DNA of 64,000 bases from an uncultured Bacteroidales bacterium (lineage in GTDB: Bacteria > Bacteroidota > Bacteroidia > Bacteroidales > UBA932): positions 1,582 through 65,581 of the forward strand of contig CAJOIQ010000004.1 of the NCBI GenBank assembly GCA_905234795.1. Direction: 5' to 3'. Of the stretch, positions 1 through 61,300 are shown piece after piece (the first letter of the stretch is position 1; the number at the start of each line of letters is the position of its first letter). Made by a program: the position numbers and the translations under genes. The notes under the pieces are model-generated. The model worked only from the letters and a program-made list of their open reading frames with translations, was not told the DNA's origin and searched no databases.

Positions 1-1088
1 CCCACGTCAAAGAAACGGCCCGGGAAGGCGGCGGCGAACTGCGTCATGCCGCAGCCCGATGCCATGGCGGGCGTGATACCCACCACCTTGGGGTCCTGCC
101 CGGCCAGTTCCGTGAGAACCTGCCCGAAGACATCCTGGTAACGGTCGGCCGGATACATCACCTTTACCCGCTCTCCGGTTTCCGGATTGAAGCGGCCGGG
201 GGCGTGCCACACGGTGGGATTGGCCTCGGCGGGGGCATAGCCGCAGCCTTTGCGGGTATGGATGTGCAGGATGCGCGGCCCGCGCAGGTTTTTCAGACGC
301 TGGAGGGTTGCCGTGAGCTGCTCGATGTCGTTGCCGTCGATGGGGCCGAAATAGCGGAATCCCAGCGCCTCAAAGATGGCGCCACCGCTGGAGCGCACCA
401 GGTTGGACTTGGTATCAATGACCTTCCGCTGCACCCAGTCGCGGGTCTTTCCTTCTCCCATGGAGTTCCACACCTTGTTCTTCAGGCGATTGTAGAAGGG
501 GTGCGTGGTCACCTTGAGGAGATAGTCGTGCAGTCCGCCGCGATTGGGATCTATAGAAATGTTGTTGTCGTTGAGGACGATGAGGATATCGGCCTTGGAG
601 GAGCCCGCGTTGTTCAGGCCTTCCCAGGCCAGGCCGCCGGTGAGGGCGCCGTCCCCGATGACGGCGATGGCCTTGTCATGGCTTCCCTGCAGGCGCGCAG
701 CCTCGGCAAAACCCAGGGCGGCCGATATGGAGGTGGAGGAATGCCCCGCGCCGAAGGCGTCGTAAGGACTCTCGGCCCTCTTGGGGAACCCGCTGATACC
801 TCCAGCCTTGCGGTTGTCCTTGAAGGCTTCCCGCCGGCCCGTAAGAATCTTATGGGCATAGGCCTGATGGCCCACGTCGAACACCAGTTTGTCCTGAGGA
901 GTGTTGAATACGAAATGAAGCGCTACAATCAGATCCACCGCCCCCAGGCTGGAGCCCAGGTGACCGGGATTCACCGCGCAGCACTCCACCATATACTGCC
1001 TGATTTCGGCGCACAGCTGCCTGAGCTGCTGCGTGGTCAGGCCCTTCAGGTCCTCGGGGCCGTTGATGGTGTTCAGCAATTCGTACAT
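1..1088 (-). CDS. dxs: 1-deoxy-D-xylulose-5-phosphate synthase (N-terminal part; runs off the window edge)
   Basis: Not in the ORF track. Manual translation from ATG at 1088 gives MYELLNTINGPEDLK...GHLGSSLGAV...FDVGHQAYAHKILTGR...GHSSTSISAALG...GDGALTGGLAWEGLNN...FEALGFRYFGPIDG, the canonical DXS motifs. Confidence 0.95.
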   Translation of the reverse strand, partial: MYELLNTINGPEDLKGLTTQQLRQLCAEIRQYMVECCAVNPGHLGSSLGAVDLIVALHFVFNTPQDKLVFDVGHQAYAHKILTGRREAFKDNRKAGGISGFPKRAESPYDAFGAGHSSTSISAALGFAEAARLQGSHDKAIAVIGDGALTGGLAWEGLNNAGSSKADILIVLNDNNISIDPNRGGLHDYLLKVTTHPFYNRLKNKVWNSMGEGKTRDWVQRKVIDTKSNLVRSSGGAIFEALGFRYFGPIDGNDIEQLTATLQRLKNLRGPRILHIHTRKGCGYAPAEANPTVWHAPGRFNPETGERVKVMYPADRYQDVFGQVLTELAGQDPKVVGITPAMASGCGMTQFAAAFPGRFFDV

Positions 1089-1130
1089 AAGTGTACAAAG
1101 GTAAGCATTTTTTTCTTTCCTTCTCCCGGC

Positions 1131-1176
1131 CATCCTCAACTAGGGCGCTTTTGCCCGTTTTTGCCCCTGTTCAGGA
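1131..1176 (-). repeat. REP-like ~46-nt unit, family TCCTSAAC...GTTRAGGA, copy 1
   Basis: Reverse complement tcctgaacaggggcaaaaacgggcaaaagcgccctagttgaggatg aligns with the copies at 5136-5180 and 5188-5233. Confidence 0.75.
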
Positions 1177-1190
1177 GCGGGGGCAAGAGT

Positions 1191-2015
1191 TTAAAGGCGG
1201 CGAAGGCCGACAGATCGGCGCATGAGGGCGTCCCACCAGCGGGTGGGAAGAAGGGCATGGAGCCAAAGCAGGAAGTAGGAGCCGCTGCCGGGATGATAGC
1301 GGTGGCGGGGATGGCGGGCGCCGACAGCCTTGCCGATGGCGTGGGAAACGCAGGAGGGTTGCGCCAGGTAATGGCCGGAATAGGCCAGGTGCATCAGACG
1401 GGCTTCTTTCTGGGCCGGTGCTGCATAGGGCGTTCCCTTGCACGAGGCTTCCAGGTGATCGGCGGCAATGTGTCCCCATTCGGTATCCACGCCGCCGGGT
1501 TCGATGAGCACCACGTCTATGCCGAAAGGCTTCAGCTCGATGCGCATGGCATCGCTGAGCGCTTCCACGGAGTATTTGGACACATGGTACCAGCCGCCGA
1601 AGGGCAATACCACACGGCCAACGACCGAGCCCACGTTCACAATACGGCCGAAGCCGTGCTCCCGCATGGACGGCAGCACCAGCTGGGTAAGGCGGGCCAG
1701 GCCGAAGACATTTACTTCCAGTTGCCGCCGGGCCTCGTCCAACGGCACATTCTCGATGGCTCCGAAATAACCATAGCCAGCATTGTTCACAAGGACGTCC
1801 AGGCGGCCTTCGGCAGCAAGGATACCATCCACGCACGCCGTCATGGATTCGTCGGAAGTAACGTCCAATGAAACGGGGATGACGCCAAAAGCGCGCAGCG
1901 GTTCCATGCGTTCCACACGCCGCGCTGCGCCATAAACCTTATGTCCCTTCTTCGCCAGAAGGGTGGCGGTTTCGTAGCCGATGCCGCTGCTGGCACCTGT
2001 GACAAGGATAATCAT
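1191..2015 (-). CDS. SDR family NAD(P)-dependent oxidoreductase
   Basis: TGASSGIG Rossmann motif, NNAG motif and YxxSK catalytic motif (YHVSKY). Confidence 0.93.
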   Translation of the reverse strand: MIILVTGASSGIGYETATLLAKKGHKVYGAARRVERMEPLRAFGVIPVSLDVTSDESMTACVDGILAAEGRLDVLVNNAGYGYFGAIENVPLDEARRQLEVNVFGLARLTQLVLPSMREHGFGRIVNVGSVVGRVVLPFGGWYHVSKYSVEALSDAMRIELKPFGIDVVLIEPGGVDTEWGHIAADHLEASCKGTPYAAPAQKEARLMHLAYSGHYLAQPSCVSHAIGKAVGARHPRHRYHPGSGSYFLLWLHALLPTRWWDALMRRSVGLRRL

Positions 2016-3439
2016 CGGTTGGGCTGGTCAAGTTTGAGTTCGGGATGGCGGGCCGATGTTTGGCGGAACAGGAATGCTACCGCCACGGCGGCGATACAAA
2101 GTCCCACAAACATCAGTTCTACGGAAACGGGGCCATGGCTACTCTTGCCCAGGATTACGCCAGCCACCCATTTGAAGGACAGCAGGCCCAGGTTCTGCAC
2201 CCAGTAGATAAGGGCAAAGGTGGTTCCCAGCACTTTGTCGGGAACAATCTTGGGAACCGACGGCCACAAGGCAGCCGGAACCAGCGAATAGCCGAAGCCC
2301 AGGAACACCATGGCCAGGTAACCCCAGAAAGGCACGCCCGCAGGAGCGAATGCCAGCAGCAGATGGGCAATCAGAGCCAGTACGGCGCCAATCACCATCC
2401 AGCGTGTGCCCTTGCCGGCTTTGTCCACCAGCATGCCGAACAGCGGGGCAAAAATCACCGTGGAAAACGGCAGCATGGAAACCATCCAACCAGCCGTTTC
2501 GGCCGGGATATCAAAACGGGGTATCAAAATGGCCCCCGCAAATTTCTTAAAAGCGATGATGCTGCTGTAAAACAGCACGCACAACAATCCCAGCAGCCAG
2601 AAATTCTTATTTCCCAGCACTCCCAGCACATCCTTGAAACGGAAGGTCTCCGTTTCCTCCGGCTCAGAGGCTTCGGGCCGGTACGCTCCTTCGGAGCTAT
2701 CCCTCCCAGACAAGTCTGGGCCCCTCCCGTTCACGGAGCCACGGGCGGCTACGCCGTCCGAAGCCTCTGAGCCGGAGGAACGGTCAGCACGGTCGGCGCG
2801 GGCATCCAGGGCCACGAAGAGGGCCCAGAGGATGAGCCCCAGGGCCATGAGGCTCATGCCCACCATGGCGGGACGGGCGGTTTCGGCCAGGGAATATACG
2901 TGACCGGGGATCTGCTGCACCAGCTTGGGAGAGAGTACCAGGGCGAAGGCCGTGCCCAGACGGGCGATGGCCAGCTGGAGGCCCATGGCCAGGGCCATCG
3001 GCCCGCCGCGGAACCATTTGGCGATGCTGCGGGTAACGGCTGTTCCGGCAATCTCACTGCCCAGGCCGAAGAGCATCACGCCCACATAGGCCAGGGTGAG
3101 GGACGCCGACGAGCCGCTCAGCAGGGCCCACAGGACCATTCCGGCACCGGCGGCCATCATGGTCACGAAGAGGGTTCCGCTCACACGAACGCCCCACTTA
3201 TCCAGCAGGATGCCGCCTATCACCAGTCCACCGAAGACGCACAGCACGCTATAGCCGCTGGCATACAGGCCGTAGCCCGCCGAATCCCAGCCCAGCGCCG
3301 TGAGGGAAGGATCCTCAAACAGGTACGAGATGCTGGAGAACATGTCGTCGAAGTAGTACGATGCGAACATCGGCACTACCAAACAGGCCAGCGCTATCCA
3401 AGCCGCTGACCTGTAGAATTTCTGAGCCGGAGCCGTCAT
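2012..3439 (-). CDS. MFS transporter carrying an in-frame repeat insertion in the central loop
   Basis: About 12 hydrophobic segments; paralogous to the adjacent MFS (shared GLQ/GSEMALARLG and SLVPAALWPSVPK motifs). Confidence 0.88.
   Translation of the reverse strand: MTAPAQKFYRSAAWIALACLVVPMFASYYFDDMFSSISYLFEDPSLTALGWDSAGYGLYASGYSVLCVFGGLVIGGILLDKWGVRVSGTLFVTMMAAGAGMVLWALLSGSSASLTLAYVGVMLFGLGSEIAGTAVTRSIAKWFRGGPMALAMGLQLAIARLGTAFALVLSPKLVQQIPGHVYSLAETARPAMVGMSLMALGLILWALFVALDARADRADRSSGSEASDGVAARGSVNGRGPDLSGRDSSEGAYRPEASEPEETETFRFKDVLGVLGNKNFWLLGLLCVLFYSSIIAFKKFAGAILIPRFDIPAETAGWMVSMLPFSTVIFAPLFGMLVDKAGKGTRWMVIGAVLALIAHLLLAFAPAGVPFWGYLAMVFLGFGYSLVPAALWPSVPKIVPDKVLGTTFALIYWVQNLGLLSFKWVAGVILGKSSHGPVSVELMFVGLCIAAVAVAFLFRQTSARHPELKLDQPNR
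2654..2780. mobile_element. MITE-like palindromic element inside the MFS coding sequence (core 2665-2769, 105 bp)
   Basis: Perfect 23-bp inverted repeat ttcctccggctcagaggcttcgg / ccgaagcctctgagccggaggaa; the core matches the reverse complement of 56333-56463. Confidence 0.8.
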
Positions 3440-5062
3440 TTAGTCCTGGATGTTAGGCAGTTCCAGACCCAGGTTTTTCTTGCGGTCCACCACCTTGAGC
3501 ACCAGGCCCAGGACGAGGGCGGCTACACCCAGGCAGGCCAGCATGACCAGCGGAGCGGTGTAGTTGAACTGGGTGGGATCCGTCACGCCGGGGTTGGTCT
3601 TGTCCAGTACCTTGCCGATGAGCAGGGGGAACAGCCACAGGCCGATGTTCTGAATCCAGAAGATGAGGGCGTAGGCGCTGCCGATCACTTTGGCATCGAC
3701 CAGCTTGGGAACGGACGGCCACAGGGCGGCGGGAACCAGGGAGAAGCTGGCGCCCAGCACCAGGATGGTGGTATAGGCCACGATGACGCCGCCAATGTTA
3801 TTACCCTTGAAGGCGGGCAGCACGAAGGCGAAGGTGAGGTGGCAGGCAATGAGCAGGATGGCGCCCAGCACCAGCATGGAGGCACCTTTACCCTTGCGGT
3901 CCAGATAGTTGCCCAGAATGGGGGTGATGAGCACGGCCAGCAGCGGGAACACGGCAAAGATGGATTCGGCGCTCTGACGCATGTAACCCATGAAGCAATA
4001 GCCGATGAGGGCTGCGATGGAAATGCCCAGGAACAGGTACTGGCGGCTCTTTACCTTCTGGAAGTTGCTGGCAAAGCCGGCGGCGGCCACCACCAGCATG
4101 ATGACATACTGGACGATGGTGACGCTGGAGCTGGCCCAATAGGAATCGGCAGCAGGCTCCGTGAGGGTAAGGTTGCACTGCAGCATGTTCACCGCATACT
4201 TCTGGAACGGGAAGATGGCGCTGTAATAAAGCACGCACAGCAGAGCCACAATCCAGAAACCGCCGTCGGAGAGGATTTTGCCGATGTCGGACACCTTAAA
4301 CGGATCGTCCTTTTCTTCGGCCTCACCGGTCTGGCTGTCCAGTTTCTTATCCATGAAGAAGTACACGATGGTCATCATGAGGGCGATGCACAGGAGCACC
4401 ACGCCGAAGGCCACGCTGCGGGACACGTCCACGCTGCCGCCCAACTTGGCGAAGAAGGGGCTGAAGATCATGCAGGTGGCAACGCCCAGGCGGGCCAGGG
4501 CCATCTCGGAACCCATGGCCAGCGCCATCTCGCGGCCCTTGAACCACTTCACGATTCCGCGGCTCACCGTAATGCCGGCCATCTCACAGCCGCAGCCGAA
4601 GATCATGAAACCGCAGGCGGCGAATTTGGCCGATGCGGGCATACCCCGGTAGAACGGGGAAACGCCCAACTCGTCAAAGAGCGGAATATAATTAAGGTTG
4701 TTGTTGAACCAGGCTTCCAGGCCGCTGCCCATGAAGGATTCGCTCACGGCGAACCACTTGATAAGGGCGCCAGCCAGCATGACACCGGCCGACAGGACTG
4801 CGGTGAACCGGACCCCCATCTTGTCCAGGATGATACCGGCGAAGATGAGGAAGAACACAAACACGTTGAGGAACACCTCGGAGCCCTGCATGGTACCGAA
4901 GGCGGTGGAATCCCAGCCGCGGGTCTCCTGCATCAGGTCCTTGATGGGAGACAGGATGTCCATGAAAATGTAGGAACAGAACATGGCCAGGGCCAGCAGC
5001 AACAGGGCTGTCCAGCGCATTGCGGCCGAATCGCGGAGGGTTTTCTTTACAGAATCTGCCAT
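3440..5062 (-). CDS. MFS transporter
   Basis: Multi-TM protein with the MFS motif A-like GIILDKMGVR; its TAA abuts the ATG of the downstream paralog. Confidence 0.9.
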   Translation of the reverse strand: MADSVKKTLRDSAAMRWTALLLLALAMFCSYIFMDILSPIKDLMQETRGWDSTAFGTMQGSEVFLNVFVFFLIFAGIILDKMGVRFTAVLSAGVMLAGALIKWFAVSESFMGSGLEAWFNNNLNYIPLFDELGVSPFYRGMPASAKFAACGFMIFGCGCEMAGITVSRGIVKWFKGREMALAMGSEMALARLGVATCMIFSPFFAKLGGSVDVSRSVAFGVVLLCIALMMTIVYFFMDKKLDSQTGEAEEKDDPFKVSDIGKILSDGGFWIVALLCVLYYSAIFPFQKYAVNMLQCNLTLTEPAADSYWASSSVTIVQYVIMLVVAAAGFASNFQKVKSRQYLFLGISIAALIGYCFMGYMRQSAESIFAVFPLLAVLITPILGNYLDRKGKGASMLVLGAILLIACHLTFAFVLPAFKGNNIGGVIVAYTTILVLGASFSLVPAALWPSVPKLVDAKVIGSAYALIFWIQNIGLWLFPLLIGKVLDKTNPGVTDPTQFNYTAPLVMLACLGVAALVLGLVLKVVDRKKNLGLELPNIQD

Positions 5063-28688: not shown

Positions 28689-29555
28689 TTACTCAAAAAG
28701 GCGGAATGTTTTCTCCAAGAACGTGAATTGGTCGTCGGCAATGATGCAATCCTCGGTTTTCCCGTCCACTGTCATGGTTACATGGGCGCCGCTTGGGGTA
28801 TAGGTTCCCTGGGATATCTGGCAAATTGTGCGGCTGGACAACAAGACTCGCGTGAAGCAGCTGTTGGTATCAAACAGGATGAGCCCCGGATAACCGCCGG
28901 TCTCGTAGGTCCAGATACTGCCGTTCAAAGCCGAACTGCCCGAATCTTCGTTTACCGGGAAATGCATGAACCAGGTATCCTCAACCAGCATCACCTCCGG
29001 AAACAGGATTCCGCTTTCCGTCCCCATGGAAACGTTGCTGCCGGTGTGAGAATAGGCAGTCTCCTCTACAAACCAGCCATAAGGAACGCCCTCCTGATGG
29101 GTCACATTATCAAAGCGCGCCTGCATTACCTTGCCATCGGCCTTGAAATAAAGCAGCCTGAACACATCCTGCTTAATGCTTACCCACACCGTATTGATAA
29201 GGTTGTCGTAATCCTTAGACCCGAAAGAGGAAAAATTCTTGTTGCTGCTGTTCTTCAGGTGCGAGAAAGTACGGGTAAAACGATGGGAACTGCCCTCGTC
29301 CGTCAGGACATCCACAGCATGGCCCTTAACCGAGAAAGTTCCGTTGAGAAACTGAACGGCGCCATTGCTGCTGCTACGCTGCAAAATGGTGGCTCTTCCA
29401 TTGGTGTCGAAATGTACAAACGCACGTTGATCGGCCTGTTCCAAAGACCAGTTGGTGTTGGGGATAGAAATATACAGGGGATCCAACAGCTTTCTACAGG
29501 AAAAGAGCACCAACAGCGATGCAAGAACAAGAATGGTACGAAAAATGCTTCTCAT
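28689..29555 (-). CDS. hypothetical lipoprotein with three internal repeats
   Basis: Lipobox LFSC; repeated xNTxW...F(D/K)xxG units. Confidence 0.7.
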   Translation of the reverse strand: MRSIFRTILVLASLLVLFSCRKLLDPLYISIPNTNWSLEQADQRAFVHFDTNGRATILQRSSSNGAVQFLNGTFSVKGHAVDVLTDEGSSHRFTRTFSHLKNSSNKNFSSFGSKDYDNLINTVWVSIKQDVFRLLYFKADGKVMQARFDNVTHQEGVPYGWFVEETAYSHTGSNVSMGTESGILFPEVMLVEDTWFMHFPVNEDSGSSALNGSIWTYETGGYPGLILFDTNSCFTRVLLSSRTICQISQGTYTPSGAHVTMTVDGKTEDCIIADDQFTFLEKTFRLFE

Positions 29556-29627
29556 GTGCGAAAAGATTATTTATCAACAAAAGTAAGTATTTTTTCGTAT
29601 TTTTGCACTCTGGAAAACGAAAATCAG

Positions 29628-30614
29628 ATGAAGAAAACCCTATTGGCCATCGTGGCTGCAGGCTTGGCCCTTTCCCTTCAGGCCCAGACCATCCGCACCA
29701 ACTACCGCGAGGAAGGCATCACCCATATTTCCACCGAATACGAAGAAGTTCAGCTGGACGGCGTCCCCACCCAGGTGAGAGTGGAGCTGGCCGGCTTTGC
29801 CGACGGTTCCACCCTGTATCTGCTGTATATGAACATGCTCCAGAAAACCAGCGTGGTGGTCCCCAAGGGCGTTAAAATGGCCGTCACCCTCAGTAACGGC
29901 AAACTCCTGCGACTGGAACAGATAGGGGCCGATTCCGCCACCAAACGCCGGCTGGACAACGGCCTTTTCCTGAACCGCTTCAAGTATGCCGTGGAATCGG
30001 CCGATATGGAAAAGATGGTGGGCGGCATCAAGAGCCTGGATATCATCACCGGCTGGAACCCCGACGACTATATGCAGGCCACCTTCGGCAACAATGAGCT
30101 GGGAGACCTTCTCAAGCGTCACTGTCAGGCCATCCTCAAGGCGGCCGATGTCACCATTGACCTCACCTCCAGCCTGTCCGGTTATACAGAGAACCTCAAC
30201 AGCGTCCTCACCACCAGCAATCCCATGGTGGCGCGCGGAGCCAGCTTCGACTACAACATCCTCATGTCCCACCTGTATTACAAGAACAACAATCAGGAGG
30301 ACCTGGACCTGGCTTTTGTCATCGGCACGGAGAATCAGTACCATGTTCCCTATGACGCCGCTGTCAAATTTACCTTGAACGACGACTCCGTCATCGGCCT
30401 GCTGCAAACCCGCGACGACGTGAACTTCGTGTACGTATACCCTACGCTGGAAGACCTCTCCCGCATGGTTTCCGTGGGCATCAAGAGTCTCTCCATCGAC
30501 TACGAAGACGGCATTCTCACCGACGACTTCCCGGCCCGCGAGGACGGCGCCCTCACCTTCTCCCAGGCCGTGAACCAGGAGCTCCAGCTGCTGCTGTCTT
30601 TGAGTAAGAGATAA
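29628..30614 (+). CDS. hypothetical secreted protein with an internal domain duplication
   Basis: Signal peptide MKKTLLAIVAAGLALSLQA, host-like codon usage, GIKSLDI/GIKSLSI repeat. Confidence 0.75.
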   Translation: MKKTLLAIVAAGLALSLQAQTIRTNYREEGITHISTEYEEVQLDGVPTQVRVELAGFADGSTLYLLYMNMLQKTSVVVPKGVKMAVTLSNGKLLRLEQIGADSATKRRLDNGLFLNRFKYAVESADMEKMVGGIKSLDIITGWNPDDYMQATFGNNELGDLLKRHCQAILKAADVTIDLTSSLSGYTENLNSVLTTSNPMVARGASFDYNILMSHLYYKNNNQEDLDLAFVIGTENQYHVPYDAAVKFTLNDDSVIGLLQTRDDVNFVYVYPTLEDLSRMVSVGIKSLSIDYEDGILTDDFPAREDGALTFSQAVNQELQLLLSLSKR

Positions 30615-51413: not shown

Positions 51414-51554
51414 TATTATGACCGCGTTGACAACCAGAACGCATAGAACGGCGATTCCGTGTCAACGCGGCCGCGTTTTTCCCAAAAAAGGCCGATTCTG
51501 TTGCCGCGTTGACAAAAAATCGGCCTCTGGTGCATTCTGCGTGTCAACGCGGCT
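51414..51554. repeat. BIME-like doublet (unit A 51421-51471, 31-nt linker, unit B 51503-51553); left terminal repeat of the 6.4-kb segment
   Basis: Each unit is (G)CCGCGTTGACA-N27-TGTCAACGCGGC; near-identical inverted copy at 57660-57800. Confidence 0.9.
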
Positions 51555-53128: not shown

Positions 53129-53764
53129 ATGAAAAAAACAATAATATTTTTTCTGTCCATCCTGATGCTGGCCGGCCTCTTCTTGATCCGTTCCCGGCAC
53201 AGGACGGAACGCGGCCTTTCCATTGACGACACGCCCGTCATCGCTACCCGGATACGGGCTCTGGGAGAACTGACCACCGCCTGTTTCTACGACGAAATCA
53301 TCATTTCCGACACCAAAGAAAACGCCCTGTCTTCTTCCCAGCTGGGTTCTCTGGCAAAGGAGAAGCTGGGGAAGGACCTGGACGACCATCTGGTCATCAT
53401 CGCCCGCGGAACCGTCCGTGCAGGAATCGACCTCCGGCGGATGGATGACCACAATATCCGCGTTGCGGGAGATACCGTCGTCGTCCGGCTGCCTTATCCG
53501 CAGTATCTGGACATCATCCTCAACCCCTCCGACTTCGAAGTGTTTGCCGAATCGGGCCGATGGACCCAGCGACAGTTCTCCAGGCTCCAGGAATCAGCCC
53601 GGCGCAGACTGCTCATGGAGGCCGATGACGCCGGCCTTCTGCAAAAAGCCTACGACGGCGCGATGGACGCCATCGTCGATCTTCTTACCGCCTGCGGCTA
53701 TACCTACATCCGCTTCGACCACCCCGGCTCCCAACTCCGGATGCCTTCGCCCCAGCCGCGTTGA
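53129..53764 (+). CDS. DUF4230-type protein
   Basis: N-terminal anchor, IRALGELTT, VRAGIDL and VVVRLPYPQ; paralog of the preceding C-terminal domain. Confidence 0.8.
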   Translation: MKKTIIFFLSILMLAGLFLIRSRHRTERGLSIDDTPVIATRIRALGELTTACFYDEIIISDTKENALSSSQLGSLAKEKLGKDLDDHLVIIARGTVRAGIDLRRMDDHNIRVAGDTVVVRLPYPQYLDIILNPSDFEVFAESGRWTQRQFSRLQESARRRLLMEADDAGLLQKAYDGAMDAIVDLLTACGYTYIRFDHPGSQLRMPSPQPR

Positions 53765-53805
53765 CACGCAGAATGCACCAGGGGCCGATTTTTTGTCGAC
53801 GCGGC
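53755..53805. repeat. Single unit B repeat between the DUF4230 gene and the transposase 3' end
   Basis: GCCGCGTTGACA-N27-TGTCGACGCGGC; contains the TGA of the DUF4230 gene and ends 1 nt before the transposase stop. Confidence 0.9.
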
Positions 53806-53806
53806 A

Positions 53807-54724
53807 TTACAGTATTACCAGGCAACGCCGAATCTGGGCATCGGGGAGGTGGAAATCGTATTGCAGCTGTTGGGCCAGGCGCTGTTTCTGGGTGTCAGTG
53901 AGTTGGTAGACGGACGTCGCTCCATATCTGGGGAGAAGGTCGTGGTCGATTAAGTGGCAGACATCCAGATCCTGCAAACGGGAGCGGCTAAACTGACGCC
54001 CATTCTCGTTCTTCAGCATCTGAGCGATTGACTTTTCATCGGCATTTTCTACCATCTCCAGTGTGATGGGGGCTCCCGTCCGGTCTTGTTCCTGATCGCG
54101 CGACCAACTCTCGTCTGTGAGTCGGTTCATCTGGTACAGGTAGTTGCGGGGTGAGGCATAGTATTGCTCGGCCCGGCGAATCTCCATAAAACTGCTGCGG
54201 AGGAAAACGCCCTCGGCATTCATCTGGTACTGGTCCGGGAACTCCGAATGTCGGGGTAGATAAGAGGCAATCTCCTGCCGGGACAATGACGCCGCTGTTT
54301 CTGACGACAGGCCGATATCCTCGGCAAAGAGGTCTCGCGCCGTGCAATACTTATAGCCCAGCGCCGTTGCCGCCGCACCGTGATGAAGCCCGTTCCGGAG
54401 AATGTAGTTCTGCAAAACCATCTGGTGATAGAAGCCCTCCACTTTCAACAGATAAGTGTATTTTTCTCCGAAACGGCCCTTCCGGTCATATTTGTGATTG
54501 AAGTATTTGGTGTAGGACATCCTGAGCGCTGCGGCAAACGCCAACGGCGTACTCGTAAACACATTCTGGTGTACGTGAGTGGACATTTCCGCATCCACGA
54601 GGATTTCCGTATCAGAAGCAAATGCCCGTAGCGCCATCAGATTCAACATCATGTTGTGGTCTTCCTCGTCCCGAAACATCACCTCCTGATGGGATGTGAA
54701 ACAGATATGATACGATTCCTTCAT
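53807..54724 (-). mobile_element. HUH/Y1 (IS200-like) transposase, REP-associated tyrosine transposase (RAYT) type, with C-terminal extension
   Basis: N-terminal YHI, F.D.ED, HUH motif MSTHVH, YFNHKYDRKGRF, and catalytic Tyr in YILRNGLHHG (cf. RAYT YIxxNP); adjacent palindromic repeats. Confidence 0.8.
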
Positions 54725-54892
54725 GGAACAAACATAAGGCAAAGTGGATACAAAACCAAGGACTGTTTTGCCATCGGCTAAAAGAATTTACGTTTTGACG
54801 GATTGAGGTGCATTTTTTTAAGTTTTAGCCGATTATTCGGCTGAAAAATATCTGTTTTGCAGGTTGCCAAGCTACGATTCTAGAATAATTCG

Positions 54893-54900
54893 TATATTTG
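54893..54900 (+). promoter_or_regulatory. -7 element (TATATTTG) upstream of the MTase leader
   Basis: TAnnTTTG match about 250 nt upstream of ATG 55153. Confidence 0.6.
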
Positions 54901-54903
54901 TAG

Positions 54904-55128
54904 TGTATCCCCGGTGGATACAAGACATATGTAATTTAGCATTTGCTATTTATTCGGTTGCCCGAAACCTGAGAAATTTCACCTGTCAACCCGGATGAGT
55001 CAGCGAATGTCTGCGCCTTGGCGTGGACTGGACTTATCTGTTGACTAGGCTTTCTCAGGGCCGCGGGCATGGATTAGAAAAGTCCATGCCTTTTTCGTGC
55101 CCTGGAGCGCCTGAGTCAAGGATAAGTC
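54904..55128 (+). ncRNA. candidate structured leader/attenuator RNA with a 17-codon uORF (54995-55048)
   Basis: Hairpin tgtatcc/ggataca, long stem 54968-54990 with 55040-55059, terminator, and downstream segment 55109-55128 complementary to 55031-55050. Confidence 0.55.
55066..55095 (+). terminator. intrinsic terminator inside the MTase leader
   Basis: ggcatgga-(9-nt loop)-tccatgcc-ttttt. Confidence 0.75.
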
Positions 55129-55152
55129 GCAAGTGCCGTAAGAGCGCAGCTT

Positions 55153-56331
55153 ATGGCCAACAATTCGAATCTTGGCGCCGCTAAGGCTGCCAAGAACGAC
55201 GAGTTCTACACCCAGTATGCCGATATCCAAAAAGAAGTCAATGCATACCTGGAGTACAACCCGGACACCTTCCGTGACAAGACGGTGCTTTTGCCGTGCG
55301 ACGACCCGGAATGGAGCAATTTCACCCGATTCTTTGCCCAGAACTTCGAACGCCTGGGTTTGAAACGGCTCATCAGCACTTCTTACGCCGTTGAGAGCAA
55401 GAAGTACAAGGACTACGAGCCCACCCTTTTTGAGACAGAGAGTCCCTTGTTCGACATGGACAAGACCCGCATCAAGGGCAAAATCTTCGAACTTACCCGG
55501 GACACCAACCAGAATGGCCGCATCGACATCGATGACCTCGAGTGGCATTACTTGGAGGGTGATGGTGACTTCCGCAGTCCGGAAGTGTGCGCCCTCCGCG
55601 ACCAGGCCGATATCATCGTTACCAATCCTCCGTTCTCGTTATTCAGAGAGTTCGTTGCGTGGATAATTAATTCAAATAAACAGTTTCTTATCATAGGGCA
55701 TCAAGGAAGTATTGGGTACAATGAAATCTTTCCCCTGATTCAGTTCAACAAGATGTGGTTGGGAATGGGATTCGCCGGTGGTGCCGGGCATTTTATAAGC
55801 CCTTATGAAGATCATGCTGTTGCTGGGAACCATAAAAAAGGAATGATACGAGTTTCGGGTGTAACATGGTTTACAAACATAGATCATGGTCGACGTCATC
55901 AGCCGATGATACTGATGAGCATGAAAGACAACATACGATATGGGAAGCACAAGGATCTTAAAGAAAGTGGATATCGAACATATGACAATTACGATGCTCT
56001 TGAGGTCCCGTATTCAGATGCCATTCCTTCCGACTACGAAGGGGTTATGGGTGTTCCAATCACTTATTTGGATAAGTACTGTCCGGATCAATTCGAAATC
56101 GTTGGTATTACAAAAACTAAGTTTAAATTGGCCTCCAAGATTTACCCGGAGCAGATTCAGATCAATAAAGACGGAACAAAACAAAGGGTAACAAAGCTAA
56201 ACGACGGTCCTGTACTAAAGATAAATAATCCTCCTGCTAACCAGGTGTACTATATGGTTGGGAACGAAATGTATATTCAATTATACACTCGAATTCTTAT
56301 TCGCAAAAAACATAATGACCAGGCTGAATAG
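55153..56331 (+). CDS. adenine-specific DNA methyltransferase, EcoRI family
   Basis: AKNDEFYTQY, LPCDDPEWSNF, GDGDFRS, motif IV TNPPFSLFREF, and YDNYDALEVP...MGVPITYLDKY. Confidence 0.88.
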   Translation: MANNSNLGAAKAAKNDEFYTQYADIQKEVNAYLEYNPDTFRDKTVLLPCDDPEWSNFTRFFAQNFERLGLKRLISTSYAVESKKYKDYEPTLFETESPLFDMDKTRIKGKIFELTRDTNQNGRIDIDDLEWHYLEGDGDFRSPEVCALRDQADIIVTNPPFSLFREFVAWIINSNKQFLIIGHQGSIGYNEIFPLIQFNKMWLGMGFAGGAGHFISPYEDHAVAGNHKKGMIRVSGVTWFTNIDHGRRHQPMILMSMKDNIRYGKHKDLKESGYRTYDNYDALEVPYSDAIPSDYEGVMGVPITYLDKYCPDQFEIVGITKTKFKLASKIYPEQIQINKDGTKQRVTKLNDGPVLKINNPPANQVYYMVGNEMYIQLYTRILIRKKHNDQAE

Positions 56332-56466
56332 ACAGAGGCTTCGGACGGCGTAGCCGCCCGTGGCTTCGTGAACGGGAGGGGCCCAGAGGAGATTGCCGGT
56401 CGAAGCCGGCAATGACGAATGGGAGGGATAGTCCCGCAGGGACGTACCGGCCCGAAGCCTCTGTCT
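56330..56466. mobile_element. MITE-like element (core 56333-56463) with a nested GTCATT...AATCTCC repeat
   Basis: 15-bp IR agacagaggcttcgg/ccgaagcctctgtct; inverted homolog of 2665-2769; nested unit at 56388-56416. Confidence 0.8.
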
Positions 56467-56488
56467 GTCAGCCCAAAAAGACAAAGAT

Positions 56489-57661
56489 ATGATAGCACGA
56501 CTTGTAACCGACTGGAGCATCGGCGACATTTGCAAAGGATTCCAGTACAACGAATACGAAGGCAAGGGGCTGTACGGCCTGTCCGGGCGGCTGACCATTC
56601 AGCCCGAATTCCAGCGCCATTACCTTTATGCCGAGAACGGCGGCAAGAAGGAGGTAGATGTCATCCAGTCCGTGCGGAACGGCTATCCGCTGGGCCTCAT
56701 CTATTTCTCCAAGGTAGGAGAAGACCGTTATGAGGTCCTCGACGGCCAGCAGCGCATCACCTCGCTGGGCCGTTTCATCACCGAGAAATTCGCCTGGATT
56801 GATGCCGATGGCAAGCCCTGGTACTTCACTGCCTTCAATAAAGACGAGCAGGAGAAGTTCCTGAACACCAAACTGCTCATCTATGTCTGTGAAGGCACGG
56901 AGAAGGAAATCAAGGACTGGTTCCGCACCATCAACATTGTCGGCATTCCGCTCAACAATCAGGAGACGCTGAATGCCGTATATTCCGGGCCGTTTGTAAC
57001 CAAGGCCAAAGAGGAGTTCTCCAACTCCAACAACACCAACATCAACAAGTGGAACTGCTTCATTCCCGGTACCGCTAAGCGGCAGGACTATCTGGCCGCC
57101 GCGCTGGACTGGGTAAGCAAGGGAAATGTGGAAGAGTATATGGCGGCCCATCGGTACGACGATGACATCACCGAACTCAAGGCCTATTTCACTTCCGTCA
57201 TCGACTGGATTACCTCCGTTTTTGACATCACGCCGGAGAAGGAAATGTGCGGGCTCAAGTGGGGTGAGCTCTACGAGCGCTTCCATAAATCGGCCTATGA
57301 TCCGGCCGCCGTGGCCGAAAAGGTCCGGGAACTGTACGAGAGCTTCTACGTGAAAGAGAAGAGGGGCATCTACGAATACATACTGGACGGCTGCCAGAAC
57401 ACGAAACTGCTCAACGTCCGCGTGTTTGATGAGCCCACCAAAAAGGCTGTTTATGCCCAGCAGACGGCCGCTGCCAGGGAGAAGGGCGAATCCAACTGCC
57501 CGCTATGCGCCATCGGCCACGATGCCAATCACACCAAAATCTGGGACTTGAAGGATATGGACGCCGACCACGTCACCGCGTGGAGCAGGGGCGGCGCGAC
57601 GGACATCGGCAATTGCCAGATGCTTTGCAAAACCCACAACCGCGCCAAAGGTAACCGTTAG
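56489..57661 (+). CDS. DUF262 (GmrS-like) plus HNH endonuclease domain protein
   Basis: QPEFQRHY and [11 protein letters not shown]262 motifs; C-terminal CPLC...[12 protein letters not shown]...[16 protein letters not shown]. Confidence 0.88.
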
Positions 57662-57800
57662 CCGCGTTGACACGCAGAATGCACCAGAGGCCGATTTTTT
57701 GTCAACGTGGCAATGAAATCGGCCCTTTTTGGGAAAAACGCAGCCGCGTTGACACGGAATCGCCGTTCTACGCGTTCTGGATGTCAACGCGGCCATAATA
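57660..57800. repeat. BIME-like doublet (unit B 57661-57711, 31-nt linker, unit A 57743-57793); right terminal repeat
   Basis: Inverted near-identical copy of 51414-51554, including terminal tattatg/cataata. Confidence 0.9.
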
Positions 57801-57820
57801 AAATGTTGCCTCCAGAGGGG

Positions 57821-57972
57821 AGAGAGACTCCCGCCGGGGGGCTTGTCCACCCCCGGACGAGGGCAGGGGGAGGGGCCCGCCGGAGACAAGTTCCCAAAGG
57901 GGACGAAGGAAACGGTGGGAGGGGCCGGAATGGAGCGAAGCGGAATGGAGTCCCCCCGGTGGGAGTCTCTCT
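57821..57972. repeat. 152-bp MITE-like element with 21-bp terminal inverted repeats
   Basis: agagagactcccgccgggggg (57821-57841) and ccccccggtgggagtctctct (57952-57972), one mismatch. Confidence 0.65.
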
Positions 57973-57992
57973 TCCCGCTGCCCTAGCAACCC

Positions 57993-58286
57993 TTACAGCG
58001 CATCCTCAACGGGGAGGACGTAGGCGCGGAGGCCGAGGTCCTTGTTGGCGGCGTCGGTGGCGCGGAGGGCGTCCATCACCTTGGGGACAAGGGCGTCTTC
58101 CAGGGCGGTGAAAAGGGCGTGGTTCTGGGTGGGCCAGGCGTGGTTGCCCAGGTGGGGCTCGCCGTCCACGGTGCCGCGGCCGCCCACCTGTTCCCACACG
58201 GTATACCCGCGCTGTCCAAAACCCGCCAGCAGCTCTACAATCTCCTGATTGTAAGCCTGGTTATATGCTACGAATATTGCTTTCAT
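57993..58286 (-). CDS. P-II-like small protein associated with the RND operon (PG0541-type)
   Basis: MKAIFVAYNQA...GYTVWEQVGGRG...EPHLG..AWP, a GlnB-like pattern; last gene of the efflux operon. Start set at ATG 58286. Confidence 0.7.
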   Translation of the reverse strand: MKAIFVAYNQAYNQEIVELLAGFGQRGYTVWEQVGGRGTVDGEPHLGNHAWPTQNHALFTALEDALVPKVMDALRATDAANKDLGLRAYVLPVEDAL

Positions 58287-58310
58287 CTTTTGTTTCTTTG
58301 TCTTTTCCAA

Positions 58311-58372
58311 GGCGCTCTGCAGAGCGCCCGGCCAGAGGCCGCAGGGGTTTTTAAGGGGGCAGCGCCCCCTCA
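58311..58372 (+). repeat. REP-like element, intergenic homolog of the trmB insertion
   Basis: Perfect palindrome ggcgctctgcagagcgcc, then cggcc..aggccgc..agggggcagcgccccctca. Confidence 0.75.
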
Positions 58373-58374
58373 GA

Positions 58375-61300
58375 CTATTTTTGCGCGCGAGCCTTGCGTT
58401 TCTGCCGGTGCTCCGTAAATCCGCAATAAAGAACCGGAATGAGCACCAGGGTAATCAAAGTGGAGATAGACAAACCCCAGGCAACGGTGATACCCAGGCC
58501 GCGCCACATCTCGGAGCCTTCGCCCTGACCCAGGGCCATGGGCAGCATGCCCAGCACGGTGGTGAGGGTGGTCATGAGGATAGGACGCAGACGGCTCTTG
58601 GCAGCCACCACGGAGGCGTCACGCACGCTGTAGCCGCGTTCCTGCAACAGGATGGTATAGTCGATGAGCACGATACCGTTTTTCACCACAATACCCAGCA
58701 GGATGATAATACCCACCATGCCCATCATGCCGATGGCCATGTTGTTCACCAGGTTGCCCAGGGCAATGCCCGTGAAGGCAAACGGGATGGAGAACATGAT
58801 GACGAACGGGCCCATCAAACTCTCGAACTGGGAGGCCATCACCATGTACACCAGGATCACGATGAGCGCCACCAGCAGCAGCAGGGAACCGAACATCTCC
58901 TGCTGTTCCTCGTAGTCACCGGCGATGGCGTAGGAAAGCTCGGCGGGGAGAGGTTCGGCCGCCATCATCTCTTCGATGACCTCAACGGCCTCCGACAAAG
59001 CGGTACCCCGTTTAACCATACCTGTGGCCGATATGTAACGCTCACGGTTCTTGCGCTGGATGGTGGGCGGAACCTTGGATTCCACAATGCGGCCCAGGTC
59101 TCGCACTTTGATGCCCTGCCCGGCGGCATTGTACACCACGATGTTCTCGATGTCGTCCATGCTCTGGCGGAACTCCGGGGCATAGCGCACGCGGATGTTG
59201 TACTCGTCACCGTCTTCCCGGAAGAAAGAGCCCACGGAACCGCTCATGGCGGCGGAAACGGCCGCGGCGGCGGTGGTGGAAGTGAGCCCGTTGAGGGCCA
59301 GTTTCTCACGGTCGAAGTCCACTTCATATTCGGGCGTATAGTCGTCTCGGCCCAGCATTACCTGGGTGAACTTGCCGCTCTCCAGCATCTGTTCCCGGTA
59401 CATCTTGGCGGCCCGCTCGGTTTCCTCGAAGTCGTAGCCATAGATTTCCAGGACCACGCGGGAAGCGCCGCCCATACCCATGCCGCCTTCCGTCACGTTG
59501 AACTTCTTCAGTTCCGGGAACATGCGGAGGTCGGCACGCACCACATCGGCAATCTCCGACGTTGTGCGGAAGGGAATGCCCTTTTCGGCCTGCAGCGCCT
59601 TACGCTCCGTGGCCGTGTGCACGTTGATATTGTAGGAGATGATGTAGGTGCCGTTGGAACGCATGTTGGCGAAGGTGTTGTTGGCATCGGCCTGGCCGAA
59701 GTTGTAGCTGAGCACCTTGATTTCGGGCACATCCTGCCGGATTTGGGCATAGATGGCCGCCGCCACTTCTCGCGTGACGTCCTGCGCCGTGCCGATGGGA
59801 AGTTCGGCCGATACCGTCACACGGCCCTGGTCCTGCGTGGGGAAGAACTCCGTCTTCATCTTGGGACCATAGATGCCCAGCACCGCCGCAAAGATGACCA
59901 GCGCAGCCAGCAGGATGAGCTTCTTGTGCCGCATGCACCAGGCAATCATGCGGCTGTATCCGGCCGACAGGCCGTCCAGGAATGCGTTCACGGGCTTGAA
60001 CAGAATCTCATGGAAGCGGGAAGAGGAACCACCGCGGCCCAGCAGCTGCGAGCACATCATGGGCACTAGCGTAAGGGCTGCCGTGGTGGACACAATCATG
60101 ATGATGGACACAATCCAGCCCAGCTGCTTGAACATGATACCGGTCATGCCGTTGATCATGGTGAGCGGCAGGAACACGCACAGCATGGTGAGCGTGGAGG
60201 CTATGACGGAGATACCTACCTCGGCCGTTCCGTGTACGGCGGCCTCCTTGGGCTTCTCTCCCCTTTCGATATGGGAGGTCACGTTCTCCAGCACCACGAT
60301 GGCGTCGTCCACCACCATACCCACGGCAATGGCCAGGGCGCTCATGGAGATGATGTTCAGGGTGTTACCCGTAAAGTACAGGTACATGAGGGAGGCCAGC
60401 AGGGCCATGGGGATGGACAGCACCACAATGAAGGTACCCTTCCATCGGCCCAGGAAAAGGAACACCACCAGCATCACCACCAGGAAGGTGATGAGGATGG
60501 TCTCCAGCAGGGAGCGGATGGTGTTGAGGATGTTGCGGGAAGAGTCCACCACCGTGGTGATCTTGATATCCGAGGGCAGGTTGTGTTCCAGCGTGGCCAG
60601 GGTTTTCTTCACCTGCTTGATGACGTTCACCGTATTGTAGCCGGACTGCTTCTGGATAATGATCTGGGCGCCGCGGGTACCGTTGGTGTAGGACTCCTGG
60701 GATTTTTCCTCCAGGCCGTCCTCCACGCGGGCCACATCCCGCAGATAGACGGCCGAACCGTTGCGGTTGCCCACAACGATGTCCAGCAGTTCCTGCGGAT
60801 CCTCGAATTCCTTCTTGATGCGCAGGGAATAGGTGCTGGAGCCGATGTCGATGCTGCCGGAAGGCACATTGCGGTTCTCGGCGGCAATAATGCTGGAAAG
60901 GGAGCTGATGCTGAGGCCGTAGGCTTCCAGCTTGGCGGGGTCGCAGTACACCTTGATTTCACGGTTGGGAGCGCCGGTCACCGACACCGTACCCACACCG
61001 GAAACGCGGGCCAGCGGCGTGGCCACGCGGTCGTCCAGGATTTTGTTCAGGGCCGATACGCTTTGGTCGGCGGTGCAGGCCAGGATCATGATGGGCATGT
61101 CGTCGGCGCTGAACTTGAAGATGGTGGGATTGGAGGCGCCGTCGGGCAGGGAGGACTTGATCATGTCCAGCTTGTCACGGACGTCGTTGGTTGCCACCTC
61201 GATGTCGATACCGTACTGGAATTCCAGCGTGAGCATGGACACGTTCTCACGGGAGGAGGAGCTCACGTTCTTGAGGTTGGCCACGGAGTTGAGGGAGTTC

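Follow-up and report, generated by a model that had tools for sequence, protein, structure and literature searches.

A GC step within a predicted EcoRI-family methylase gene as a family-wide feature of a modular methylase–nuclease cassette

The window analysed here, a stretch of 64,000 nucleotides from an uncultured Bacteroidales bacterium (contig CAJOIQ010000004.1), contains a methylase gene (55153–56331, + strand) in which GC content falls sharply just past catalytic motif IV and recovers in the nuclease gene downstream (56489–57661, + strand). The original prediction took this step as the mark of a recent recombination that had replaced the C-terminal, presumably target-recognising, half of the methylase in this genome. 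The same step was found throughout the family, with the GC content of third codon positions (GC3) higher in the N-terminal half (N half) than in the C-terminal half (C half) at all 51 loci with adequate flanks (mean difference 0.18, p = 5e-10), and it does not serve as a marker of recent replacement here. The step is a standing property of a widespread methylase–nuclease pair and not the scar of a recent swap. On balance, the window probably holds one fixed member of a widespread mobile cassette, with the composition of its C half derived from a circulating pool of modules.

The GC step inside the methylase gene

The open reading frame (ORF) at 55153–56331 was matched over its full length by the Pfam family PF13651, EcoRI_methylase (E = 8e-124; 413.9 bits against a cut-off of 26.4; residues 6–386 on profile positions 1–345), and was called MTase_II by PADLOC (2.5e-84). 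Its 392-residue product is a predicted N6-adenine DNA methyltransferase of the EcoRI family. Motif IV, TNPPF, lies at residues 157–161 (55621–55635, + strand) and is invariant across 59 aligned homologs, in keeping with the catalytic pattern (D/N)PP(F/Y/W). Invariance ends with the box NPPFSLFREF, past which the exchangeable part of the protein begins.

The five GC counts made by hand in the original prediction were exact (37, 22, 23, 23 and 36 of 60 nucleotides), and sliding-window and changepoint analyses agreed that the sharp drop inside the gene is real. The 700-bp window starting at 55619 has the lowest GC of the entire 64 kb, 0.397, about 5 standard deviations under the mean of windows of that size (mean 0.577, standard deviation 0.035). 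A maximum-likelihood two-segment changepoint was placed at 55610–55663, with a GC of 0.54 before it and 0.40 after it and a GC3 of 0.74 and 0.41, respectively. When third positions only were used, the best changepoint was codon 170 (log-likelihood ratio, LLR, 22.7). The break had been placed at TNPPF itself; the step does adjoin motif IV, but the switch starts about 7–20 codons past NPPF and not inside it. Composition is host-like again in the nuclease gene, downstream of the low-GC tract, as had been noted (36 of 60 at 56581–56640; GC3 0.76). At 4-fold degenerate sites, GC was 43/61 (0.70) in the N half, 25/82 (0.30) in the C half and 135/163 (0.83) in the nuclease (Fisher p = 3.6e-6 for the contrast), and the GC contrast within the methylase is purely synonymous.

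In the AlphaFold2 (AF2) model of the methylase (predicted local distance difference test score, pLDDT, 83), motif IV follows a strand at residues 154–157 and the next core strand occupies residues 177–183. With core strands on either side, the GC step would cut through the Rossmann fold rather than fall at a domain border. A sequence search of the PDB gave no match to the methylase and chance matches only to the nuclease, and a Foldseek search of the methylase model against the PDB returned nothing under E 0.1. NCBIfam supplied no name for any of the three proteins examined. Another ORF of the window, at 28728–30614 (+ strand), has a larger internal GC3 step, from 0.45 to 0.79 at codon 299 (LLR 39), which may reflect an over-extended ORF call.

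The step across relatives

A scan of one genome per species, without the window's own species and with a best match of 69% identity, yielded 80 loci that span many phyla and lie for the most part in metagenome-assembled genomes (MAGs) of rumen and gut. A homolog of the DUF262-HNH nuclease lay directly downstream of the methylase in 79 of the 80, and the pair was also found on plasmids of many phyla and in one phage. The methylases P0121 (locus L085) and P0144 (locus L086) belong to the same methylase–nuclease pair and show the same step in unrelated genomic contexts, with GC3 values for N half, C half and nuclease of 0.71/0.29/0.62 and 0.66/0.32/0.63, respectively. Over a codon alignment of 57 cassettes, mean GC3 was 0.52–0.65 at residues 1–165, 0.32–0.47 at residues 166–392 and 0.51–0.63 in the nuclease. 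The N half exceeded the C half at 4-fold sites in 55 of these 57 cassettes, and the step was individually significant at 35 of 57 loci, with a median changepoint at codon 180 (interquartile range 171–200).

N-half GC3 and nuclease GC3 are closely correlated (r = 0.90), both being close to that of host ORFs. The C half tracks host GC as well (r = 0.60 for its GC3), though at an offset. A block near the middle of the C half, termed B2 below, shows conservation of 0.68–0.89, yet its GC3 is 0.34–0.46 family-wide. Amino acid composition was considered as a cause of the step and rejected, given that GC at first and second codon positions is equal between the halves across the family and that 4-fold sites differ.

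Some copies are step-free. GC3 for N half, C half and nuclease was 0.81/0.81/0.77 in a Dietzia plasmid copy, 0.87/0.91/0.89 in one from Rhodococcus and 0.17/0.18/0.16 in a Flavobacterium phage copy, and an E. faecium plasmid copy shows a small GC3 gap only. Given the step-free actinobacterial plasmid and phage copies, the step is neither intrinsic to the gene nor required for its function. At one further locus (L023, 4857–7113), two complete genes of this methylase family stand in tandem upstream of a single nuclease.

Separate histories of the two halves

Residues 1–167 of the methylase (55153–55653, + strand) form a conserved frame with host-like GC3 (0.73–0.74) that is 90–99% identical in amino acid sequence across 65 proteins and co-evolves with the nuclease. 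With the N half (residues 1–156) as query, the best matches were 93–98% identical, falling to 47–64% beyond motif IV, a value that applies to the first ~100 residues past the motif since this search returned only proteins of 272 residues or fewer. Full-length proteins with N halves 93–96% identical had C halves that ranged from 62% to 87% identity. Within the close clade, conservation is near 100% through Phe167 and collapses from residue 168, and blastn homology to the closest N-half relative, L095, stops exactly at 55635. The L095 copy (1356–3202), whose N half is 98% identical to that of the window, is itself degraded; from residue 168 on its C allele is another one, and a deletion has removed most of its C half together with the first 10 nuclease codons.

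Distance matrices from the 57 cassettes gave a Mantel r of 0.75 for the N half against the nuclease, 0.16 for the N half against the C half and 0.25 for the C half against the nuclease, with controls from the two halves of one gene at 0.71–0.73. In neighbour-joining trees, the N half and the nuclease had 21 of 54 splits in common and the two halves of the methylase 3 of 54. As the distances of N half and nuclease are correlated at the level of a single gene and those of the C half are not, the frame and the nuclease have been co-inherited and the piece between them has not. The incongruent phylogenies of the two halves are as the original prediction had expected.

Two exchangeable modules

The C half had been proposed to be replaced as one unit at motif IV. 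It does have its own history past motif IV, but the unit resolves into two sub-modules, a first variable region (VR1) with its flank and a second variable region (VR2). Module 1 (55654–55872, + strand; GC3 0.40) consists of the flanking block B1 (residues 168–202) and VR1 (residues 203–240). It is followed by the semi-conserved block B2 (residues 241–313, WFTNIDHGRRHQP ... MGVPITYLDKYCPDQ; 55873–56091, + strand; GC3 0.42). Module 2 is VR2 (residues 314–392; 56092–56328, + strand), bounded by an FEIVGIT box at 56092–56112 and an RILIRK box at 56290–56307.

A set of 65 full-length proteins, each matching the N half of the window at 90% identity or better, comprised no fewer than 8 clusters of VR1 and no fewer than 20 of VR2 in 31 combinations, so that close homologs do carry differing C alleles, as had been supposed. 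VR1 and VR2 clusters assort independently, and the identity of B1 tracks the VR1 cluster. The window alleles pair VR1 cluster 1 with VR2 cluster 7.

Pairs of related loci display the exchange at the DNA level. L005 and L012 have a common, syntenic upstream flank (93.6% identity) and are 89–100% identical per block to codon 168, mostly 94–100%, and 89–100% identical over codons 241–312. Alignment fails between these tracts at about codons 205–240 (VR1), and again over everything from about codon 313 onward (VR2). Despite these two replacements, their nuclease DNA is 93–100% identical per 30-codon block, mostly 97–100%, which bears out the claim that the nuclease stays while the methylase tail is swapped. 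The alignment of 57 cassettes likewise contains no hypervariable block in the nuclease. VR2 is the sole difference between L075 and L078. Conversely, L085 and L086 have unalignable VR1 sequences and VR2 sequences that are 94–97% identical, and the number of synonymous substitutions per site (dS) between them is 0.23 in VR2 compared with 0.79 for the N half and 1.58 for the nuclease, indicating that VR2 has moved more recently than the frame. The homology of the window to L001 and L002 breaks at 56094–56099, in the FEI box that opens VR2.

Judged from sequence, VR1 and VR2 are probably DNA-recognition elements. The AF2 model shows VR1 as a low-confidence loop or hairpin and places VR2 within a beta-rich C-terminal domain. 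When residues 45–161 (55285–55635) were compared with residues 230–362 (55840–56238) by hhalign profile–profile alignment, a probability of 95.8% and an E-value of 7e-9 were obtained, an indication that the N-terminal part of the methylase is repeated, in degenerate form, in its C-terminal part. In this comparison LKINNPPA of the window VR2 aligns to IIVTNPPF, and VR1 and VR2 may occupy equivalent positions of the two repeats.

Silent VR2 cassettes in relatives

In a shufflon-like subfamily, the methylase and nuclease genes flank extra VR2 cassettes. Three VR2 cassettes are present in Alloprevotella sp. oral taxon 473 F0040 (L063, 6946–9759), one active, one silent in direct orientation and one silent and inverted. 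Bacteroides neonati MS4 (L027, 6952–9692) has one active and two inverted cassettes, and both a Muribaculaceae MAG (L053, 6946–7332) and a Phocaeicola massiliensis replicon (L101, 3961–7172) have an active VR2 and one inverted cassette. Every cassette starts with (F/V)EILG, and all except the truncated silent one of L101 end in an RILI(K/R)-type box; these are the boxes that bound VR2 in the window. At L053, a perfect 20-nt inverted repeat lies on the FEILGIT codons. The silent alleles are of types that are active elsewhere, the type of the window included, and the silent cassette region of L063 has a GC content of 0.35.

Directly after the nuclease, L063 encodes a tyrosine recombinase (PF00589), and homologs 57–65% identical to it occupy the same place in L027, L058 and L101. 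L058 has the recombinase with no extra VR2 cassette detected, and the L053 contig, which does hold a silent inverted cassette, ends before any recombinase could be seen. This arrangement suggests phase-variable methylase specificity in the shufflon-like subfamily. The four loci with silent cassettes all come from human gut, oral or animal-gut Bacteroidales, cultured isolates included.

Origin of the AT-rich tail

In the explanation that we favour, the cassette would be a restriction-modification-like unit of a leader, an EcoRI-family adenine methylase and a DUF262-HNH nuclease, in which a co-inherited frame (methylase residues 1–167 plus the nuclease) encloses an exchangeable insert (residues 168–392) holding the two independently reassorting variable regions. 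Modules would be exchanged by recombination in the short conserved boxes NPPFSLFREF, WFTNIDHGRRHQP, MGVPITFLDKYCPEQFEI(L/V)G and ARILIRK or the nuclease start. In some Bacteroidales, the tyrosine recombinase and the silent direct or inverted VR2 cassettes appear placed for exchange within one cell. We infer that the insert is AT-rich at synonymous sites because it circulates among genomes, is sometimes untranslated and is only partly ameliorated, while the frame would reside long enough to match the composition of its host; a GC-rich host would then display a sharp step just past motif IV. Circulation through a pool is invoked because the history of the C half is decoupled from that of the frame, because VR2 is younger than the frame between L085 and L086, because the step is absent where composition is uniform and because the silent region of L063 is low in GC.

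Several points weigh against this explanation. Even in the hosts of lowest GC, the GC3 of the C half does not exceed that of the N half, the opposite of what simple mixing from a pool predicts for them, which makes a further directional pressure toward AT likely. Third positions are AT-rich in the conserved block B2 as well, and no AT-rich reservoir of modules was identified. No solved homolog was found by the PDB and Foldseek searches to place the variable regions on DNA. The 64-kb window contains no extra copies of the variable regions and no homolog of the recombinase, and the seven contigs that carry its exact nuclease show no allele polymorphism.

Of the rivals to a circulating module pool, a segment-specific mutation–selection balance survives best, although as the explanation of the step it appears unlikely. 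Here the synonymous sites of the C half would drift in situ toward an AT-biased mutational equilibrium, in a segment that would be under diversifying selection and would rarely recombine with homologous alleles, leaving codon selection or GC-biased gene conversion ineffective. The C half lies below the N half in every host class, low-GC hosts included, and it is in many hosts of middle or high GC that the gap is widest. The contrast survives synonymous saturation, C-half GC3 tracks host GC, and the silent cassette region of L063 is lower still, all as drift would have it. However, little or no gap is seen in the copies from high-GC Actinobacteria, Kiritimatiellae and Verrucomicrobia, and B2, which is conserved under purifying selection, is equally AT-rich. 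Drift is compatible with module exchange acting alongside it, and AT-biased drift where weak GC-raising forces fail probably contributes to the low GC3.

It is improbable that the 3' two-thirds of the methylase gene is under functional selection for AT-richness of the DNA itself or for codons that are AT-rich or rare. Such a tract might throttle a coupled nuclease or host internal regulatory signals, and in most relatives the methylase and nuclease genes overlap by 4 nt (ATGA), which makes translational coupling plausible; the position of the step is also conserved. Nevertheless, the actinobacterial plasmid and phage copies are step-free despite having the same gene pair and overlap. In the window a 137-nt insertion stands in place of the overlap and has already broken the coupling, yet the low GC3 persists, and the 700-bp tract is much longer than a promoter or attenuator requires.

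A shade less credible again, and by now largely refuted, is a single recent recombination at motif IV that brought in a foreign low-GC C half and left the step as an unameliorated scar. The sharpness of the step and its position next to an invariant box would fit, as would the different C allele of L095, the closest N-half relative, which begins exactly after TNPPF. Against this stands the presence of the step in all 51 related cassettes of other genomes. Divergence from L085, which carries the same VR1 and VR2 types as the window, is also deep in every part, with a dS of 2.6 in the N half, 2.2 in B1 with VR1 and 2.8 in the nuclease and with saturation in B2 and VR2, and the GC3 contrast has been kept in both lineages. 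Either this combination of alleles predates the split of the two lineages, or both drew old alleles from the pool. Moreover, all seven contigs with the exact nuclease of the window carry an identical 392-residue methylase. Given a C-half dS as high as that of the frame and the identity of the seven contigs, the view that the C half was recently replaced in this genome is not upheld.

In four gut or rumen metagenomes, sequences matching the N half or the nuclease at 90% similarity or more had a far greater read depth than the C half of the window (about 280, 5 and 150 for N half, C half and nuclease in run X7), and in run X1 a unitig of the assembly graph breaks at 55590–55619. At the community level there are many frames and many tails, and the tail of the window is one rare allele. 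A chimeric metagenome assembly that joined two organisms at the conserved motif can be set aside almost entirely: the N half is common to many community members, where assemblers can mis-join, but 7 contigs, drawn from several metagenome assemblies made independently, have the identical methylase amid the same genes, one error-free and unbranched 771-nt Logan contig spans 55590–56360, and the pattern is also present in isolate genomes and complete plasmids.

Specificity and system type

The invariant partner of the methylase is a 390-residue protein (56489–57661, + strand) that combines DUF262 (GmrSD_N; PF03235, 1.2e-17, residues 36–165) with an HNH nuclease domain (PF01844, 3.2e-7; residues 355–390), the latter accompanied by a weak HNH_5 match. 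PADLOC calls it REase_II over its full length (7.7e-79), and the Pfam search gave no match to DUF1524 (GmrSD_C). Since this nuclease is unchanged under VR swaps and VR2 is apparently switchable within a cell in some species, it would either take its specificity from the methylase, by the logic of Type I and Type III systems, or act without sequence specificity. An endonuclease of fixed specificity is hard to reconcile with these observations because changes in the variable regions would then be lethal. The suggestion of the original prediction that specificity resides in the methylase tail, with the nuclease sharing or ignoring it, is plausible given a nuclease that is unchanged across swaps. 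More tentatively, and short of what we would call probable, the cassette may be a compact programmable restriction system. A specificity-free, ParB-like DUF262-HNH nuclease would be directed or licensed by a methylase whose VR1 and VR2 reassort in the community and are recombinase-switched in some Bacteroidales, which would place Type I-like logic in a 2.5-kb unit with the GC3 step as its population-genetic signature.

In EcoRI-type Type II restriction-modification systems, a separate methylase and endonuclease each recognise the site independently. The pair described here likewise has two adjacent genes with Type II methylase and endonuclease profiles in Pfam and PADLOC. In contrast to the classical arrangement, the nuclease retains 93–100% DNA identity despite replacement of both presumed recognition modules, and some relatives appear capable of switching VR2 through inversion.

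Closer parallels are found in systems that shuffle target recognition domains (TRDs). The HsdS subunit of Type I systems, with two TRDs, and the hsdS invertons and shufflons (PMC7672463, PMC4948785, PMC7394358) similarly have two independently assorting modules and one nuclease for all specificities, and some relatives of the window cassette resemble the invertons in having silent inverted or direct cassettes, short conserved repeats and an adjacent tyrosine recombinase. Here, however, the catalytic methylase itself contains the modules, with no separate S subunit to carry them; HsdM and HsdR are absent, the whole cassette measures only about 2.5 kb, and the window copy is without silent cassettes and without a recombinase. 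Type III mod/res systems of Haemophilus and Neisseria (PMC1557822) and TRD movement in Helicobacter (PMC3575425) offer a second likeness, namely a hypervariable recombining region in a conserved methylase, a conserved nuclease partner and horizontal exchange of alleles. The window pair differs in having a DUF262 (ParB-like) and HNH partner instead of a Res helicase-nuclease, a methylase of PF13651 and not of the Type III beta class, and a pair of variable regions where those systems have a single one; nothing resembling a simple-sequence repeat switch was seen, no dedicated search having been made. The nuclease resembles the GmrSD/BrxU/SspE family (PMC12707154) in its N-terminal DUF262 with a DGQQR motif fused to a nuclease of the His-Me-finger type, but its C-terminal domain is a classical HNH (PF01844) rather than DUF1524, and its gene almost always directly follows a methylase (79/80 loci), where those of that family stand alone or neighbour unrelated defence systems.

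Neither protein matches canonical HsdM, HsdS, HsdR, Mod or Res, the sole Pfam families being PF13651, PF03235 and PF01844. A literature search of partial coverage, and without REBASE, found no paper on this pairing of methylase and DUF262-HNH protein. The logic of TRD shuffling is known from Type I, III and IIG systems, and its occurrence in this pair appears to be undescribed.

If VR1 and VR2 do set specificity, a cassette very common in gut, rumen, plasmids and phage has been mis-filed as a fixed-specificity Type II system and would in fact generate diversity of methylomes and of restriction combinatorially and, in some cases, by phase variation. The nuclease would then have to take its specificity from the methylase, by a mechanism undescribed for DUF262-HNH proteins. 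With such short conserved boxes at the module borders, chimeras for testing the rules of recognition are easy to design. For the reading of compositional scans, this is a clean natural case in which a GC step inside a gene is shared stably across a family and is not proof of recent transfer.

Leader, repeat elements and neighbouring genes

The two genes are preceded by a conserved leader (54883–55152, + strand), with its left edge at about 54883–54938, where DNA homology to L001, L002, L085, L086 and L095 begins. Homology extends from there to 57661. Beyond the leader there is no flank synteny with these five loci, the cassettes lying in unrelated genomic contexts.

The insertion between the methylase stop and the nuclease start is a GC-rich, structured repeat element of 137 nt (56330–56466, no strand assigned). 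It has a 15-nt perfect terminal inverted repeat and a predicted RNA fold of -77.7 kcal/mol (z -5.3), and a second, inverted copy is present at 2665–2769, with a 55-nt arm that is 98% identical. In four metagenomes its depth was 175–3464 compared with about 5–500 in the flanks (10–100x), with many differing flanking sequences or loose ends. L085 and L086 lack the element, and Rfam returned nothing in 54600–58400. From these features, it is either a highly repeated element of the kind of miniature inverted-repeat transposable elements (MITE) or repetitive extragenic palindromes (REP), or a putative uncatalogued small RNA.

Palindromic units of 51 nt (GCCGCGTTGACA...TGTCAACGCGGC) occur as a doublet at 51414–51554, singly at 53750–53806 and as a second doublet at 57660–57800. 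The two doublets form a 141-nt inverted repeat of 94% identity that brackets 6.1 kb including the cassette, and one unit abuts the stop codon of the upstream 311-residue ORF and another that of the nuclease. The arrangement looks like that of REP or bacterial interspersed mosaic elements (BIME). The 311-residue ORF itself (53807–54742, - strand) had no match in Pfam (even at E 10), NCBIfam, PADLOC or the PDB. By eye it contains putative HUH-like (HVHQ) and YxxxN-like motifs that may recall REP-associated Y1 transposases. A homolog with 73% nucleotide identity lies at the same position in L095 and not in the other cassettes. Finally, the population variants L081 and L082, otherwise 99% identical, differ by indels of ~140–150 nt in the intergenic flanks of the cassette, at positions corresponding to ~57835–57972 and ~53765–53806 of the window, which is consistent with active small repeat elements.

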